Origin: Escherichia coli
GTDB lineage: Bacteria > Pseudomonadota > Gammaproteobacteria > Enterobacterales > Enterobacteriaceae
Reading direction: 5' to 3' (one strand)
Length of the DNA: 64,000 nt
Assembly (NCBI RefSeq): GCF_001677475.2
Contig: NZ_CP015229.1
Part shown: positions 3,045 through 40,889 of the stretch, piece by piece
How positions within the stretch are numbered: position 1 is the first letter of the stretch
Layout of the letters: each line of letters starts with the position of its first letter
Made by a program: the position numbers and the translations under genes
The notes under the pieces: generated by a model
Told to the model about the DNA's origin: nothing
The model's input: the letters and a program-made list of their open reading frames with translations, nothing else
Databases searched by the model: none

Positions 3045-4178
3045 ATGTCATCACTGAATATTAAACAGGGAAGTGACGCTCATTTTCCTGAGTATCCTCT
3101 GGCGTCGCCCAGTAATAATGAAATTGATTTACTTAATCTAATCGAAGTTTTATGGCGGGCCAAAAAAACGGTCATGGCGGTCGTTTTTGCATTTGCCTGC
3201 GCAGGTTTACTGATCTCTTTCATCCTGCCGCAAAAATGGACCAGCTCAGCCGTTATTACTCCCGCCGAAGCCATTCAGTGGCAGGACCTGGAGAAAACCT
3301 TTACCAAACTCCGCGTTCTTGATCTCGATGTTAATATCGACCGTGGCGGTGCATTTAACCTGTTTATCAAGAAGTTTCAGTCGGTTAGCTTGCTGGAAGA
3401 GTACCTACGTTCATCACCTTATGTGATGGACCAATTAAAAGAGGCGAAAATCGACGAACTGGATTTGCATCGCGCAATTGTCGCATTGAGCGAAAAAATG
3501 AAAGCGGTTGATGACAATGCCAGTAAGAAAAAAGATGAACCGTCACTGTATACCTCCTGGACGCTAACTTTTACCGCACCAACCAGTGAAGAAGCGAAGA
3601 CCGTTTTGAGCGGGTATATCGATTATATCTCTGCGTTGGTGGTGAAAGAGTCGATAGAAAACGTCCGTAATAAACTGGAGATCAAAACCCAGTTTGAAAA
3701 AGAAAAACTGGCTCAGGATCGCATTAAAACGAAAAATCAACTTGATGCAAACATTCAGCGCCTCAATTATTCACTCGACATTGCCAACGCGGCAGGAATT
3801 AAAAAGCCCGTATACAGTAATGGTCAGGCCGTTAAAGATGACCCCGATTTCTCTATTTCTCTCGGCGCAGACGGTATTGAACGCAAACTGGAAATTGAAA
3901 AAGCGGTCACTGACGTTGCGGAACTGAACGGTGAATTACGTAATCGTCAGTATCTTGTTGAGCAGTTAACAAAAGCAAATATCAACGATGTGAATTTTAC
4001 GCCATTTAAATATCAGTTAAGCCCGTCATTGCCAGTGAAAAAAGACGGTCCGGGTAAGGCGATTATTGTGATCCTTTCCGCGTTGATCGGCGGAATGGTG
4101 GCTTGTGGTGGCGTGCTGTTGCGCCATGCGATGGCATCCAGAAAACAGGATGCCATGATGGCAGACCACTTAGTTTAA
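3045..4178 (+). CDS. fepE: Polysaccharide co-polymerase (Wzz-like chain-length regulator)
   Basis: 377-aa ORF with N- and C-terminal hydrophobic segments flanking a long coiled periplasmic region; position between entF and fepC. Confidence 0.9.
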   Translation: MSSLNIKQGSDAHFPEYPLASPSNNEIDLLNLIEVLWRAKKTVMAVVFAFACAGLLISFILPQKWTSSAVITPAEAIQWQDLEKTFTKLRVLDLDVNIDRGGAFNLFIKKFQSVSLLEEYLRSSPYVMDQLKEAKIDELDLHRAIVALSEKMKAVDDNASKKKDEPSLYTSWTLTFTAPTSEEAKTVLSGYIDYISALVVKESIENVRNKLEIKTQFEKEKLAQDRIKTKNQLDANIQRLNYSLDIANAAGIKKPVYSNGQAVKDDPDFSISLGADGIERKLEIEKAVTDVAELNGELRNRQYLVEQLTKANINDVNFTPFKYQLSPSLPVKKDGPGKAIIVILSALIGGMVACGGVLLRHAMASRKQDAMMADHLV

Positions 4179-4990
4179 ATATTTGCGGTTGAAGGTGCCG
4201 TTCGTCCGAGCGGCACCACGAGCGGCGTTCCGGCTACCGGATCGTCAATTATCATGCAGCGCAGACCATAAATGCGCTCGATCAATTCAGCAGTGACAAT
4301 CTCCTTCGGCGCTCCCTGAGCAATAATTTTCCCTTCCCGCAATGCAATCAAATGGCTGGCGTAACGACAGGCCTGGTTAAGATCGTGCAGCACTGCCGCC
4401 AGGGTATAGCCTTTCTCACGGTTCAGTTCGCTCAACAGTTCCAGTAGATCAATCTGATGACTGATATCCAGCCAGGTCGTTGGTTCGTCGAGCAGCATAA
4501 TTGCCGTTTCCTGGGCCAGCACCATCGCGATCCACGCTCGCTGGCGTTGTCCACCAGAAAGGGTATCCACGCTTTGATTTGCCAGATGAGTTATTCCCGT
4601 GGCCTGCATCGCTTTCGTTACCGCTTCTTCATCTTCTTTGCGCCAGCGGGTAAACAGCGGTTGATGCGGGTAACGTCCACGCGCCACCAGCTCCTGCACG
4701 GTGATATCGCCCGGCGTGGTAGCATTTTGCGCCAACAGACCAATCCGGCGTGCAACCTCTTTACTGGCGTAATGTTGAATGTGCTCACCATCCAGCCAGA
4801 CATGCCCGTGAGCAGGCGTCATCAGGCGGCTTAAAGTACGCAGTAAAGTGGATTTACCGCAGCCATTTGGCCCGATAATTGCCGTGAAGTGACCATCAGG
4901 TATTTCTACAGTCAGATTTTCCGCAACGGTATATTTGCCATATCCGAGGGTTAACTGTTCGCCGCGCAAACGGGCTACTGATTCGGTCAT
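4175..4990 (-). CDS. fepC: Ferric enterobactin ABC transporter ATP-binding protein
   Basis: ORF-track frame trimmed to internal ATG (MTESV...). Walker A GPNGCGKST, ABC signature LSGGQRQR, Walker B LLDEPT. ATGA overlap with fepG. Confidence 0.93.
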   Translation of the reverse strand: MTESVARLRGEQLTLGYGKYTVAENLTVEIPDGHFTAIIGPNGCGKSTLLRTLSRLMTPAHGHVWLDGEHIQHYASKEVARRIGLLAQNATTPGDITVQELVARGRYPHQPLFTRWRKEDEEAVTKAMQATGITHLANQSVDTLSGGQRQRAWIAMVLAQETAIMLLDEPTTWLDISHQIDLLELLSELNREKGYTLAAVLHDLNQACRYASHLIALREGKIIAQGAPKEIVTAELIERIYGLRCMIIDDPVAGTPLVVPLGRTAPSTANI

Positions 4991-5979
4991 TTTTTGCGAG
5001 ACTCCTGAATTAACAAGACGATAAGGTAAATACCGCCGAGGCTGACGGTAACGACGCCAACCGGAAGTTGATACGGCATAAACAGTTGTTGGGCGCAGAG
5101 ATCGGCCGCCAGCAGTAACAGCGCCCCGCACAGCGCCGCCTGGGTCAGCCCCCAGCGAGCGGTGCCGCTAATGCGTCGGGCAATGTGCGGCGCGACTAAA
5201 GCAATAAAGGAAATCGGCCCGGCAAGCGCTGTTGCCGCAGCGGTAAGCACCACTGCAACCAGCATCATTAATAGACGCGAACGTTCGACGCTGACGCCCA
5301 GCGCACACGCGGTATCATCGCCCATCTCCAGCAAGCGCATTCGCCGCACCAGTAAGGCGGCGGCAATGAGCATCAATATAATGATGGGGGCGGAAGGCGA
5401 GGTTTTTGCCCACGTCAGGCCGTTGAGCGATCCGGCATTCCACAAACCTGCTGTTAGCGCCGTTTCTAAAGACGCTTTCAGCAACAGCCAGGTATTAAAG
5501 GCCACCAGCATGGCGCGAACACCGATACCGATAATAATCAACCGAAAGGTGTCGATGCCGTTACGCCAGGCGAGCAGCCAGACCAACAGCGAAGTGACAA
5601 TGCCGCCCATCATTGCTGCCAGCGCGATAGCCGTCAGGTCCTGACCAAACAGCACCATCGCCACCAGCACGCCGCTCCACGCCCCGGTGTTAAAACCCAT
5701 TACGTCAGGGCTGCCGAGCGGGTTACGCATCAGCGACTGAAAAATCGCGCCGCTGACGCCCAGCGCCGCGCCAATCAACAGCGCCATCAGCACGCGTGGT
5801 AAACGCCATTCGGTGACCACCATCGTCATACTGCGCGGCGCATCGCCCATCAGCGCGGCGAATACCTGCGAGGTTTCCAGCGTGACGGCACCGCTGCGTA
5901 ATCCCCAGATACCTGCAACCACACAGGCGGAAATCAGCAGCAAACAGGTGATGAGTAATCGGCGAGAGACGTAAATCAT
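4987..5979 (-). CDS. fepG: Ferric enterobactin ABC transporter permease
   Basis: 330-aa polytopic membrane ORF of the FecCD permease type; 4-nt overlaps with fepC and fepD. Confidence 0.93.
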   Translation of the reverse strand: MIYVSRRLLITCLLLISACVVAGIWGLRSGAVTLETSQVFAALMGDAPRSMTMVVTEWRLPRVLMALLIGAALGVSGAIFQSLMRNPLGSPDVMGFNTGAWSGVLVAMVLFGQDLTAIALAAMMGGIVTSLLVWLLAWRNGIDTFRLIIIGIGVRAMLVAFNTWLLLKASLETALTAGLWNAGSLNGLTWAKTSPSAPIIILMLIAAALLVRRMRLLEMGDDTACALGVSVERSRLLMMLVAVVLTAAATALAGPISFIALVAPHIARRISGTARWGLTQAALCGALLLLAADLCAQQLFMPYQLPVGVVTVSLGGIYLIVLLIQESRKK

Positions 5980-6980
5980 GCACCACCTCGCGTTTTACGT
6001 CGCACGAGGAAGATTAGCACCGGTGCACCAATAAACGCACTGACCACAGAAACGCGCAACTCGCCGGGCACAATCACCCGCCCGATGATATCGGCAAACA
6101 GCAGCAGGGCAGGGGTGGCGAGTAGCGTGACGGGCAGCGACCAGCGATGATCGGCACCCACCAGCCAACGCGCCATATGCGGCATCATCAGGCCAATAAA
6201 GGCAATCGGGCCAACTACCGCTGTCGCACTACCACAAAGCACGGTAATCGCCAGCAGACCAATTAACTGTGTGCGCGCCACGCGACTGCCCAGCGCCGTC
6301 GCGGTGTCGCTGCCGAGGCTTAAACTGTTCAGTGCGCGGCTCAGTAATAGCGCGGTTGCTCCGGCGACCAGCACCGGGATCAGCACCACTTTTAAGGTAT
6401 GTAGATTGCGAATATCCAGCGAACCGGCTTGCCAGAAACGTAGTTGATCGTAGACGTCAGGATTAAGCAGGGCGATGCCGCTGGTCAGCCCTTCCAGCAC
6501 CGCCGCCAGCGCCACGCCCGCCAGGGTTAAACGCACCGGACTTAACTGCCCGCCGCCCTGGCTGCCGGTAAAGGCAACAATCAACGAGGCCACCAGCGCC
6601 CCGGCGAAGGCCATCGCCAGTTGTTCCTGTGCGGAAGAGTAACCAAACAGCGCCGCACCCAGCACAATGGCAAAGCTGGCTCCGGCGTTCACGCCAAGCA
6701 AGCCGGGGTCGGCAAGTGGATTTCGGGTGAGGGTTTGCATCAACGCCCCGGCAAGGCCAAGCGCGCCGCCTGCAAGTAAACCGGCAAGGGTGCGCGGCAG
6801 TCGCGCGTCGAGCACGATGGTGCAGTCGGCGCTCTGACAGGTGCCGGAGAGGGCCTCCAGCACTACGGAAGCGGGGAGTGATTTTGCCCCAATGAGCAGG
6901 CTTAATGCCGTCGCGATAATCAGTAATAACAGCAATCCGGGCACGGCAATGGCGCGTGTCACGGCAACAGAACCAGACAT
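5976..6980 (-). CDS. fepD: Ferric enterobactin ABC transporter permease
   Basis: ORF-track frame trimmed to second ATG (MSGSVAV...), which has GGAAG 5 nt upstream. The first ATG directly abuts the Fur box. Confidence 0.9.
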   Translation of the reverse strand: MSGSVAVTRAIAVPGLLLLLIIATALSLLIGAKSLPASVVLEALSGTCQSADCTIVLDARLPRTLAGLLAGGALGLAGALMQTLTRNPLADPGLLGVNAGASFAIVLGAALFGYSSAQEQLAMAFAGALVASLIVAFTGSQGGGQLSPVRLTLAGVALAAVLEGLTSGIALLNPDVYDQLRFWQAGSLDIRNLHTLKVVLIPVLVAGATALLLSRALNSLSLGSDTATALGSRVARTQLIGLLAITVLCGSATAVVGPIAFIGLMMPHMARWLVGADHRWSLPVTLLATPALLLFADIIGRVIVPGELRVSVVSAFIGAPVLIFLVRRKTRGGA

Positions 6981-6992
6981 ACGAACTTCCAT

Positions 6993-7011
6993 GATAATGA
7001 AATTAATTATC
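6993..7011. promoter_or_regulatory. Fur box in the divergent fepD / entS promoter region
   Basis: gataatgaaattaattatc is a close match to the Fur consensus GATAATGATAATCATTATC; lies between divergent iron-uptake genes. Confidence 0.7.
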
Positions 7012-7090
7012 GTTATCGATCTTATTTGGATATGTTAGCATGTGCAGCCTAAGAATAGGTATTTAAAATATTTGATGGCAAGGCATTGTA

Positions 7091-8341
7091 ATGAATAAAC
7101 AATCCTGGCTGCTTAACCTCAGCCTGTTGAAAACGCACCCGGCGTTTCGCGCAGTATTCCTCGCTCGTTTTATCTCAATTGTGTCTCTGGGTTTGCTCGG
7201 CGTCGCGGTACCGGTGCAGATCCAGATGATGACGCATTCTACCTGGCAGGTGGGGCTTTCGGTGACGCTGACCGGCGGCGCGATGTTTGTTGGCCTGATG
7301 GTCGGCGGTGTGCTGGCGGATCGCTATGAGCGCAAAAAAGTGATTTTACTGGCGCGCGGCACCTGTGGCATTGGCTTCATTGGACTGTGCCTGAATGCGC
7401 TGCTGCCGGAGCCGTCATTGCTGGCAATCTATTCACTCGGTTTATGGGATGGTTTTTTCGCATCGCTTGGCGTTACGGCGCTACTGGCGGCGACACCTGC
7501 ACTGGTAGGGCGTGAAAACCTAATGCAGGCCGGGGCGATCACCATGTTGACCGTGCGTCTGGGATCGGTGATTTCGCCCATGATTGGCGGTTTACTGCTG
7601 GCGACTGGCGGCATAGCCTGGAACTACGGGCTGGCGGCGGCGGGCACGTTTATTACCTTGCTACCGTTGTTAAGCCTTCCGGCGTTGCCACCGCCACCGC
7701 AGCCGCGTGAGCATCCGTTGAAATCATTACTGGCAGGATTTCGTTTTCTGCTCGCCAGCCCGCTGGTAGGAGGGATTGCGCTGCTGGGTGGTTTATTGAC
7801 GATGGCGAGCGCGGTGCGGGTACTGTATCCGGCGCTGGCTGACAACTGGCAGATGTCGGCGGCACAGATTGGTTTTCTCTATGCGGCGATCCCGCTCGGT
7901 GCGGCTATTGGCGCGTTAACCAGCGGGAAGCTGGCACATAGCGCGCGACCAGGGTTATTGATGTTGCTCTCCACGCTGGGATCGTTCCTCGCCATTGGTC
8001 TGTTTGGCCTGATGCCGATGTGGATTTTAGGCGTGGTTTGTCTGGCGCTGTTCGGCTGGCTGAGCGCGGTTAGTTCGTTGCTGCAATATACAATGCTGCA
8101 AACGCAAACCCCGGAAGCGATGTTAGGGCGGATTAACGGTTTGTGGACGGCGCAAAATGTGACGGGAGATGCCATAGGCGCGGCGCTGCTGGGCGGTTTG
8201 GGAGCGATGATGACACCGGTTGCTTCCGCAAGCGCGAGCGGTTTTGGTTTGTTGATTATCGGCGTGTTGTTGTTGCTGGTGCTGGTGGAGTTGCGACGTT
8301 TTCGCCAGACGCCGCCGCAGGTGACAGCGTCCGACAGTTAG
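7091..8341 (+). CDS. entS: Enterobactin exporter, MFS family
   Basis: 416-aa ORF with about 12 hydrophobic segments; divergent from fepD behind a Fur box. Confidence 0.93.
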
Positions 8342-8353
8342 CTAAAGGTGCAT

Positions 8354-8396
8354 TTTCCCCTCACCCTAACCCTCTCCCCAAAGGGGCGAGGGGACT
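8354..8396. repeat. GC-rich palindromic intergenic element, copy 1
   Basis: cccctcaccctaaccctctcccc aaa ggggcgaggggac; the same 23-nt core recurs at 16753-16775. Sits between convergent entS and fepB, so a likely bidirectional terminator hairpin. Confidence 0.6.
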
Positions 8397-8421
8397 GTTA
8401 GTGCTCTAATTTTATGTTTTA

Positions 8422-9387
8422 TCAATCTTTTTTAAACAGTGAATTAAGTCTGTCCAGCACTTGCATGGCGCTGTAGTAATCCAGGCGGAACGTCTCGGTT
8501 CCCAGCGCATAAACCTGCTTGTTTTGTACTGCGGGCAGGTGTGCGAGCAGCGGATTAGCATAAATAGCATCGGCGTCTTTCTGATCACCGGCGAACAGGA
8601 ATAGTGACTCGCCATTTAACCCTGCAGCCAGATTTTCCCCACCAAGCTGAATGATGTCATGGCGTTTGCCCTGGCTTTGGCTGGCGTTTAAGCCTGCGGG
8701 CAACTTCGCCAGCGTAAAGCCGAGTTGTTCCAGCATCTGCCCTTGTGCTGATTCCGGCGTCCAGAGATTGGCACTGTGTGCAGCGGCAGTATAGACAATG
8801 GCAGTGATCGGCTGCGGCGGTAATTTGATTTGCTCTTTCGCCGCTGCCAGTTGCTTATCAAACTGTGCAATCCGCTTTGCCGCTTGTTTCTCATGCCCGG
8901 TAATTTCGCCAAGCTGCGTTAACAGCGACTGCCAGCTTTTGTCGTCGTAATTGATGATTAATGTCGGGGCGATGGTAGAGAGCTGATCATACAGCGCCAG
9001 CGCCGAATCACCGCCGGTTGCGCTAATTAAAATCAGATCCGGCATTTGCGCGGCAACGGCTTCTGCACTCGGTTCGCCGATATAGAGCCGTTGCAGTTTG
9101 CGTTCTGTCGCCACCTTGCTCCACTGGCGTAAAAAGCCCTGGTCATCCGCGACGCGGTTATTTGGCGTGGTCGCGCCGCTGGCGATCACCGGAGCATCAA
9201 TCGCCAGCAGTGAGCCGGTCAAGGTGACGCTGGTGGAAACAATACGCTGCGGCTGGCTTTCCAGGGTATGAGTGCCACGGCTGTCAGTAATCTGACGCGG
9301 CCAGTCGGCAGCCTGAACTACGGCTATTCCTGAAAGCAAAAGTCCTGTTAATAGAAGGGCGTTGCGGTAGAGCGAGGCGAGTCTCAC
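8422..9387 (-). CDS. fepB: Ferric enterobactin periplasmic binding protein
   Basis: 321-codon ORF beginning at GTG (MRLASLYRN...), signal-peptide-like N-terminus; Fur-regulated divergent partner of entC. Confidence 0.9.
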
Positions 9388-9527
9388 AAATCAGCTTCCT
9401 GTTATTAATGAAGTTAATGCTTCTCATTTTCATTGTAACCACAACCAGATGCAACCCCGAGTTGCAGATTGCGTTACCTCAAGAGTTGACATAGTGCGCG
9501 TTTGCTTTTAGGTTAGCGACCGAAAAT

Positions 9528-9546
9528 ATAAATGATAATCATTATT
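9528..9546. promoter_or_regulatory. Fur box in the divergent fepB / entC promoter region
   Basis: Core tgataatcattat (9533-9545) matches the Fur consensus exactly, with partial matches on both flanks. Confidence 0.7.
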
Positions 9547-23246: not shown

Positions 23247-23617
23247 TAATTTGTCCTTTTCAGTCAGTGCAAAAGTCGAGTAAAAGGCATAACCTATCAC
23301 TGTCATAGGTAAGAGCTTAGATCAGGTGATTGCCCTTTGTTTATGAGGGTGTTGTAATCCATGTCGTTGTTGCATTTGTAAGGGCAACACCTCAGCCTGC
23401 AGGCAGGCGCTGAAGATACCAAAGGGTAGTTCAGATTACACGGTCACCTGGAAAGGGGGCCATTTTACTTTTTATCGCCGCTGGCGGTGCAAAGTTCACA
23501 AAGTTGTCTTACGAAGGTTGTAAGGTAAAACTTATCGATTTGATAATGGAAACGCATTAGCCGAATCGGCAAAAATTGGTTACCTTACATCTCATCGAAA
23601 ACACGGAGGAAGTATAG

Positions 23618-27307: not shown

Positions 27308-27535
27308 TTTTACTCCATGTCGTCGGTACTGCGAGTGTCGCAGTAAACATACCCAAAAGAAAACCCTCACCGTCAGGCGGCGAGGGTTTAACTCACATGA
27401 TGATACTGACTGTTGCTCACTCTTTGAAGTGATTTGCGTCACATTCAGGGAATTCCTCAATGCAGCGCATTATGTATAATTCTTAATCGTCACGGTTTAT
27501 GGAAGACGAATTAGCGTGTTTTGTAAATCAGATGA

Positions 27536-28342: not shown

Positions 28343-28389
28343 AATGGGTGTGGAACTCATACATACACTGAATACTATCTATTAAATCA

Positions 28390-28424
28390 TAAAAAAGCCC
28401 GCCAGGTGGGCTTACCTGGCGGGC
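28390..28424 (-). terminator. Intrinsic terminator of citT
   Basis: gcccgccagg / cctggcgggc inverted repeat, followed on the minus strand by a U6 run. Confidence 0.65.
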
Positions 28425-28455
28425 GTGATGATTTATTCAGCGTTTGGCGAACGTA

Positions 28456-29919
28456 TTAGTTCCACATGGCGAGAATCGGCCAGCCAACCAACAGCAACAT
28501 AGAGATGTAAATCACCCCGAAGATTGCGCCAAGTCGCCAGTAATCTTTTGATTTCACATAGCCACAGCCGTAAATAATCACCCCAGGACCGGTTGCATAC
28601 GGCGTCAGACAGCCCATGATACCGATAGACAGCACCAGCAGGATACACAGTTGTTCCATTGGTACGCCCGGAATACCTTTACCGACGGCCAGAATAACCG
28701 GCAGCATGGTTGCAGTGTGCGCAGACAGGCTGGCAAACAGGTAGTGTGCAAAGTAGAACACCAGAACCAGTACAATCACCGTTGCGTTTGGTGAGAATCC
28801 TTCCAGGTGCGTACTCATGGTACCGGCGAACCAGTCAATAAAACCAGAACGAGTCAGGCCGTTAGCCATCACAACCAGAGTTGCCAGGTTGACCAGCGTG
28901 TTCCATGCGCTGTTATAGCGGGTAATGTCTTTCCACGGCACAACGTGCAGGGCCAGCATTAGCGAAACTGCCAGCAGACCAACCGCAGTAGCATTAATGA
29001 CTTCACTGCCAAATACCCACAAACCTAAGCTGAGCAATACAAGGCCAATCAGCGTCCACTCTCTGCGTGTCAGCGCACCCATGGTTTTTAGTTCATCACC
29101 CGCCCAGGTTGCCACTTCTTCACTGTGTGTGATTTCCGGTTTGTACAACACGTAGGAAAGCCACGGCGCAATGATAAGCAAGATAACCCCAACCGGCAGG
29201 AAGCAGAGGAACCACTGCAACCAGCTAATCTGGATACCGGCAATTTTGCTGACGAACTCCAGACCCAGCACGTTTGGTGCCGCACCGGTGACAAACATGG
29301 ACGAACTCAGACTGGTACTAATGACCATCATCCACATCAAATAGCCGCCAATACGACGCGCGGACGGATCGTTCGGGAATGATTTAAACAACGGCGGCAG
29401 GTTTTTAATGACCGGAAAAACCGTACCCCCGGTACGCGCGGTGTTGGACGGTGTAAACGGTGCCAGCAGAATGTCGATAATGACAATCGCATAACCCAAC
29501 GTCAGCGTGCGTTTGCCCATGAATTTCACCAGGAAAAGGGCAATGCGACGACCTAACCCGGAAACTTCATACCCTAATGCAAAAATAAATGCGCCAAATA
29601 CCAGCCATACCGTGGTGCTGGAAAAACCAGCCAGACCCCATTTCAGCGCCTGTTTTTGCGCATTAAACGCTGGGTCAGCTAATTCTTTGGCATCAAAGAG
29701 CAGGTAATTACTGCCAATAACGCAAATAGTAACCGCAATAAAACTGATCGCTGTTGCCGGAATTGGCTCGAGGATCATGCCGACAATCATTGCCACAAAC
29801 ACAGCGAAGTAATGCCATGCCTGCGGCGGCATACCGTCGGGGACAGGGATAAGAAACATGACACCCATCACCACCAGTGGGGCCAATAGTTTCCATATAT
29901 TATCTTTTGCTAAAGACAT
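28456..29919 (-). CDS. citT: Citrate:succinate antiporter
   Basis: 487-aa polytopic membrane ORF at the distal end of the cit gene cluster. Confidence 0.93.
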   Translation of the reverse strand: MSLAKDNIWKLLAPLVVMGVMFLIPVPDGMPPQAWHYFAVFVAMIVGMILEPIPATAISFIAVTICVIGSNYLLFDAKELADPAFNAQKQALKWGLAGFSSTTVWLVFGAFIFALGYEVSGLGRRIALFLVKFMGKRTLTLGYAIVIIDILLAPFTPSNTARTGGTVFPVIKNLPPLFKSFPNDPSARRIGGYLMWMMVISTSLSSSMFVTGAAPNVLGLEFVSKIAGIQISWLQWFLCFLPVGVILLIIAPWLSYVLYKPEITHSEEVATWAGDELKTMGALTRREWTLIGLVLLSLGLWVFGSEVINATAVGLLAVSLMLALHVVPWKDITRYNSAWNTLVNLATLVVMANGLTRSGFIDWFAGTMSTHLEGFSPNATVIVLVLVFYFAHYLFASLSAHTATMLPVILAVGKGIPGVPMEQLCILLVLSIGIMGCLTPYATGPGVIIYGCGYVKSKDYWRLGAIFGVIYISMLLLVGWPILAMWN

Positions 29920-40457: not shown

Positions 40458-40631
40458 GACAAATGAAATTTTAGTAAACTCTTTAAAATCAATGGGTAAA
40501 ATAATTAACATCAAAAATAACGCGACTTTTATCACTTTTTAGTAAAGTTGCACTGGACAAAGCGTACCACAATTGGTGTACTGGTAACCGACACAGCATT
40601 TGTGTCTATTTTTCATGTAAAGGTAATTTTG

Positions 40632-40841
40632 ATGTCTAAGATTAAAGGTAACGTTAAGTGGTTTAATGAGTCCAAAGGATTCGGTTTCATTACTCCGGAA
40701 GACGGCAGCAAAGACGTGTTCGTACACTTCTCTGCAATCCAGACTAATGGTTTTAAAACTCTTGCTGAAGGTCAGCGCGTAGAGTTCGAAATCACTAACG
40801 GTGCCAAAGGCCCTTCTGCTGCAAACGTAATCGCTCTGTAA
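40632..40841 (+). CDS. cspE: Cold-shock-domain protein
   Basis: 69 aa; RNP1 motif KGFGFI. Confidence 0.97.
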
Positions 40842-40860
40842 GATACGTCAGCAAGAATTC

Positions 40861-40889
40861 AAAACCCGCTTAATCAGCGGGTTTTTTTT
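40861..40889. terminator. Bidirectional intrinsic terminator between cspE and crcB
   Basis: aaacccgct-taatc-agcgggttt hairpin flanked by an A-run and a T8 run. Confidence 0.7.

Follow-up and report, generated by a model that had tools for sequence, protein, structure and literature searches.

The Fur-controlled bidirectional fepDGC-entS promoter-operator of Escherichia coli and the choice between two in-frame start codons for fepD

The window, a stretch of 64,000 nucleotides from Escherichia coli (contig NZ_CP015229.1 of assembly GCF_001677475.2), carries at positions 6981 to 7090 exactly the annotated 110-bp intergenic region between fepD and entS. At an identity of at least 95%, positions 6700 to 7400 are found in 5416 of the 5426 complete E. 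coli genomes, where the matched segment is annotated as fepD and entS, and the 191 bp from 6940 to 7130 are 100% identical to those of K-12 MG1655. Window positions are converted to MG1655 v3 coordinates by adding 615209, and NC_000913.2 coordinates at this position equal those of v3 minus 777. As in MG1655, fepD-fepG-fepC is divergent from entS.

The fepD coding sequence occupies 5976 to 6980 on the minus strand, as supported by the ORF list and by Pfam, and has the same coordinates as b0590 of MG1655 and as fepD in the RefSeq/PGAP annotation (1005 nt, encoding 334 amino acids plus the stop). Its product is a permease of the FecCD family of ABC transporters (PF01032, 310 bits, E = 2e-92). A search of the PDB gave FhuB, HmuU, and BtuC as the closest solved relatives and no FepD structure that would reveal the N terminus in use. 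The longest mechanical ORF is larger (5976 to 6992, 338 amino acids, beginning MEVRMSGS) and opens at an upstream ATG, so that two ATG codons of the same frame have to be considered, ATG1 at 6992 to 6990 and ATG2, the annotated start, at 6980 to 6978. The same kind of longest-ORF over-extension is seen at fepC, where the mechanical ORF (4175 to 5131, minus strand, 318 amino acids) opens at a GTG at 5131, 47 codons upstream of the annotated 271-amino-acid fepC (4175 to 4990 by K-12 coordinates), and overlaps fepG.

On the plus strand, entS (ybdA), which encodes the major facilitator superfamily enterobactin exporter, spans 7091 to 8341, in agreement with the ORF list, matches to Pfam MFS_1 and MFS_3, and the MG1655/RefSeq annotation. 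Between entS and the convergent fepB (the ORF of which ends at 8422), positions 8345 to 8421 hold a repeat (…ccctcaccctaaccctctccccaaaggggcgagggg…) that is GC-rich, about 77 bp long, and presumably a Box C-like element judging from its appearance. The K-12 junction consists of only 3 bp and has no such repeat. In this strain the repeat changes the C terminus of FepB to ...LNSLFKKD. The junction is covered at 80% or more in only 38 of the 5426 complete E. coli genomes, and the element itself is multicopy, with a median of 8 places per genome. Farther downstream, the window seems to lack about 1.4 kb relative to MG1655 at some point between about 9300 and 27400, as judged from the Rfam rnk leader at 27352 to 27460 (125 bits) and the position of rnk at 28348 to 28758 in MG1655-based coordinates. 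Rfam also retrieved, at gathering threshold as for the rnk leader, an STnc70 small RNA upstream of ahpC (23380 to 23473, 44 bits) and a cspA-type thermoregulator at 40531 to 40889 (123 bits), presumably in the cspE region.

In K-12, the fepDGC-entS (ybdA) region is reportedly a Fur-regulated bidirectional promoter-operator, as Christoffersen et al. in 2001 (J Bacteriol 183:2059) and Lavrrar et al. in 2002 (J Mol Biol 322:983) are said to have described. The intergenic region of the window is the same locus, with the same gene coordinates, annotation, Fur footprint region, and transcription start sites (TSSs). No difference from K-12 exists in the control region, and the strain departs from it only elsewhere, for example, by the repeat insertion between entS and fepB. 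The region is thus the bidirectional promoter already characterized in E. coli as being under Fur control, and it holds no new biology.

Published TSSs place the two promoters within this region. The fepD TSS lies at 7025 on the minus strand (NC_000913.2 621457, 81 reads, 45-nt 5′ untranslated region [5′UTR]) according to the entry in Table S1 of Kim et al. 2012, and its placement is exact, because the 51-nt promoter string printed with that entry is identical to window positions 7075 to 7025 on the minus strand. A 5′UTR that begins there is 45 nt long if translation starts at ATG2 and 33 nt long if it starts at ATG1. The primary entS TSS lies at 7049 on the plus strand (621481, 42-nt 5′UTR) in the Cappable-seq data of Ettwiller 2016 and in the corresponding entry of Table S1 of Kim 2012. 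A secondary one at 7077 (621509, 6 reads, 14-nt 5′UTR) is given by the latter table.

With respect to these start sites, putative extended −10 elements can be assigned on both strands. For fepD this would be TGCTAACAT at 7040 to 7032 (minus strand), with the hexamer TAACAT at 7037 to 7032, 6 nt before the TSS, and for entS TGTTAGCAT at 7033 to 7041 (plus strand), with the hexamer TAGCAT at 7036 to 7041, 7 nt before the TSS. At the level of sequence, both have a TGn followed by a hexamer located 5 to 8 nt before the mapped TSS. A candidate −35 element for entS, TTATCG at 7013 to 7018, was found by inspection with a 17-bp spacer and is weak (3 of 6 positions). The mapped start sites and the extended −10 elements suggest that the fepD and entS promoters stand back to back, with −10 regions that probably overlap on opposite strands and TSSs 24 bp apart. 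The two −10 elements form a near-palindrome (ATGTTAGCAT / ATGCTAACAT) at 7032 to 7041, in which the TG motif of each promoter falls inside the −10 hexamer of the other, and this block is near-invariant across the Enterobacteriaceae. In fact, the block GCACATGCTAACATA is shared by about 95% or more of 72 non-redundant enterobacterial sequences.

The core Fur box lies at 6993 to 7011, where GATAATGAAATTAATTATC matches the 19-bp Fur consensus GATAATGATAATCATTATC at 16 of 19 positions. Within the 64 kb of the window, no other match has as few as three mismatches, and 0.01 such matches were expected from 100 dinucleotide shuffles. The box directly adjoins ATG1, as reported by the first-pass annotation. 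The consensus scan also revealed secondary matches over 6999 to 7023 that overlap the core in a 6-bp register, starting at 6999 (15/19) and 7005 (11/19), and NATWAT hexamers are present at 6993/6994 and 7005/7006. Overlapping clusters of this kind are the usual form of Fur operators. A Fur match of 16 to 17 of 19 positions is found upstream of fepD in 80 of 81 orthologous sequences (described below). Chen et al. 2007 reported Fur walkers in a cluster of four over 37 bp centered at NC_000913.2 621437, which is window position 7005, and confirmed binding of Fur to a fepD-entS oligonucleotide by gel shift. The DNase I footprint of Fur, primary and secondary, extends over NC_000913.2 621394 to 621462, or 6962 to 7030 of the window (Table 3 of Chen et al. 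2007, taken from Lavrrar et al. 2002). It covers the fepD TSS and the candidate −35 element of entS and runs from about −5 to +64 relative to the fepD transcript. With this coverage, a single operator can repress both promoters.

The region has two counterparts in the same enterobactin cluster, fepA-fes and fepB-entC, in which divergent, iron-regulated promoters likewise flank Fur boxes. Both counterparts exceed fepD-entS in length, and in fepB-entC each promoter has Fur sites of its own, whereas fepD-entS has only 110 bp, a single Fur cluster, and −10 elements that overlap. Within the window, two 15/19 matches to the Fur box, at 9413 to 9431 and 9528 to 9546, fall between fepB and entC, in what is the cluster's second bidirectional region under Fur control.

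The first-pass annotation had taken the abutment of the Fur box on ATG1 as support for ATG2 and had proposed that the promoter and operator overlap the longer reading frame. It thereby implied that the fepD promoter or TSS overlaps ATG1 or lies downstream of it, so that ATG1 would be absent from the mRNA. An example of the signal that such a model needs does exist, since a consensus scan finds a σ70-like match of 9 of 12 positions, TCGATA-17-TATCAT, at 7019 to 6991 on the minus strand; its −10 overlaps ATG1 and would give a near-leaderless transcript from about 6984. However, this match is buried in the Fur operator, and Fur boxes, being AT-rich, resemble promoter hexamers; the scan returned 2 matches where 0.7 ± 0.8 were expected. 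Moreover, the entries of Table S1 of Kim et al. 2012 that cover this region give only the one fepD TSS at 7025, with none between NC_000913.2 617434 and 621457, and hence none between ATG1 and ATG2 or near 6984. No TSS among these entries supports the 7019-to-6991 match or a second promoter-like match at 7081 to 7052 as an alternative fepD promoter. A message that lacks ATG1 is therefore highly improbable.

With the TSS at 7025, transcription begins 33 nt before ATG1, so that the message includes both the Fur box (+15 to +33) and ATG1, at +34. The operator is thus 5′UTR sequence, and its position next to ATG1 does not exclude ATG1 as a start, so that the argument from abutment fails. As for the proposed overlap with the longer frame, the promoter is outside it, since the −10 hexamer assigned to fepD at 7037 to 7032 is upstream of the Fur box; only the extended footprint at 6962 to 7030 reaches into the frame, and this covers ATG2 as well. 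The ribosome-binding site and conservation, and not the position of the operator, decide the fepD start.

Read along the minus strand, the sequence is ...TTTCATTATC ATG GAA GTT CGT ATG TCT GGT..., with ...CATTATC before ATG1 and GAAGTTCGT between ATG1 and ATG2, which share a frame at a distance of four codons (MEVR-MSGS). The stretch GGAAG occupies 6990 to 6986, and the 5 nt TTCGT separate it from ATG2, as had been noted earlier. Read as GGAAGU (6990 to 6985), it agrees with GGAGGU at 5 of 6 positions and forms a Shine-Dalgarno (SD) element 4 nt before ATG2, the 5′ end of which is overlapped by ATG1. The calculated energy of the duplex with the anti-SD sequence is −3.4 kcal/mol before ATG2 versus +0.3 kcal/mol before ATG1 in the window, and a purine-rich anti-SD element 4 to 9 nt upstream of the start is found for ATG2 and is lacking for ATG1. 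The SD element of ATG2 is nonetheless weak.

Conservation was examined across different species of Enterobacteriaceae in 80 loci with fepD orthologs, aligned by the conserved DC....DARLPR motif and counted together with the window (n = 81). The codon aligned with ATG2 is ATG in 76 of the 81 sequences, and all five exceptions are from Buttiauxella, which has divergent N termini. At the position of ATG1, ATG is found in only 24 sequences, next to AGG in 27, GGG in 11, CAG in 6, and other triplets in 13; the ATG occurs in Escherichia, in the Enterobacter/Lelliottia/Leclercia group, and in Pluralibacter and Trabulsiella. The four codons before ATG2 contain an in-frame stop in 15 of the 81 sequences, including the Klebsiella/Raoultella group and five Buttiauxella loci. 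In contrast, the GGA of the SD element is near-invariant, and GGANGT is located 3 to 6 nt upstream of ATG2 in 66 of 81 loci whatever the reading frame, which points to an RNA signal and not to coding sequence. Averaged across species, the anti-SD energy is −4.5 kcal/mol before ATG2 versus +1.3 kcal/mol before ATG1.

The fepD upstream regions of Citrobacter, Salmonella, Klebsiella, and Enterobacter resemble that of the window in the −10 block, the Fur cluster (16 to 17 of 19 positions), the GGA-type SD element, and ATG2. They differ from it in the triplet at the ATG1 position, which is mostly AGG, GGG, or CAG, and in the spacing between Fur box and ATG2; Klebsiella and Raoultella carry an in-frame stop at this place. 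The SD element is AGGGAAGT in Citrobacter and Salmonella and ATGGAAGT in Escherichia, which makes ATG1 a single-base variant of the 5′ margin of the ATG2 ribosome-binding site. The distance from the Fur box to ATG2 differs by genus, being 12, 13, 14, 16, 17, 18, or 23 nt, and the exact abutment of Fur box and ATG1 is a peculiarity of the lineage with 12-nt spacing.

These data bear on the possibility that ATG1 is the real or a co-dominant start of FepD in Escherichia, giving a 338-amino-acid protein with an MEVR extension and relying on an AU-rich, unstructured leader in place of an SD element. ATG1 opens the longest ORF and, by the TSS taken from Table S1 of Kim et al. 2012, is contained in the mapped transcript. 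It is kept in all five Escherichia sequences examined (the window and four loci, representing E. coli, E. albertii, E. whittamii, and another species), and the predicted probability of being unpaired is 0.51 for the region upstream of ATG1 versus 0.34 around ATG2. Set against this, ATG1 has no upstream SD pairing, its position holds ATG in less than a third of the 81 aligned sequences, 15 of the 81 have an in-frame stop in the four codons that precede ATG2, and the ATG triplet itself is accounted for by the SD element of ATG2. Furthermore, codon 4 of the supposed extension changes nonconservatively (R/S/A/F), and ATG2 is the start given by the curated annotation of K-12 as well as by PGAP. A principal or shared role of ATG1 is therefore unlikely. 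That the real fepD start is 6980, as had been proposed, agrees with the MG1655/RefSeq annotation, the conservation, and the SD element alike.

Evidence on the N terminus of FepD at the protein or ribosome level was sought in the supplements of TetRP and TRAINSPOTTER, and no fepD entry was found in the parts consulted. A fepD TSS of Klebsiella pneumoniae was looked for in Table S1 of Kim et al. 2012, and none was found in the entries consulted. ATG2 is base paired in the predicted minimum free energy fold (−16.5 kcal/mol), but this fold is no better than those of shuffled sequences (z = −0.75, 45 of 200 as good), and a regulatory 5′UTR structure that masks ATG2 was dropped as an explanation. 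In a review, fepD is named as a candidate target of RyhB; pairing of RyhB to the fepD leader was likewise dropped, since the duplex was no better than with shuffled targets (364 of 500 as good, with an approximate RyhB sequence).

Taken together, 6981 to 7090 is very probably a compact bidirectional Fur-repressed promoter-operator of fepDGC and entS, with fepD translated mainly from ATG2 and with ATG1 as neither the ancestral nor the principal start. In this arrangement, back-to-back promoters for fepDGC (minus strand) and entS/ybdA (plus strand) would overlap in their extended −10 elements at 7032 to 7041, and the Fur cluster, with its core at 6993 to 7011, would span the −35 region of entS and the beginning of the fepD transcription unit. 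When iron is sufficient, both transcripts would be shut off by this one operator, probably by steric hindrance. The published account of the region is said to be one of overlapping, opposing promoters under one Fur site, which agrees with such a mechanism. The fepD mRNA from 7025 would bear the Fur-box sequence as an AU-rich 5′UTR, and translation would start mainly at ATG2, directed by the weak GGAAGU; we infer that ATG2 may even be used exclusively. ATG1 would then be a lineage-specific triplet at the 5′ end of the SD element, AGG in Citrobacter and Salmonella and ATG in Escherichia.

Some minor initiation at ATG1 is improbable, though conceivable. It is similarly doubtful that the AUG overlapping the SD element, which Escherichia and the Enterobacter group carry independently, acts as a minor alternative start (giving a 338-amino-acid isoform) or as a decoy that weakens the SD element. 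If it did, the decoy AUG would lower translation of the permease relative to the rest of the system, as the SD pairing is −3.4 kcal/mol with the ATG1 triplet, as in the window, versus −5.2 kcal/mol in species with AGG.

For the annotation of fepD, the outcome is that the longest-ORF track over-extends the gene by four codons, whereas the curated K-12 and RefSeq annotations already use ATG2; the first-pass annotation had rightly called this a point of start-site annotation and not new biology. The finding has little importance beyond annotation hygiene. The general lesson is that a place right next to an operator does not disqualify an upstream in-frame ATG as a start when the operator is transcribed as 5′UTR, and that conservation and the ribosome-binding site decide.
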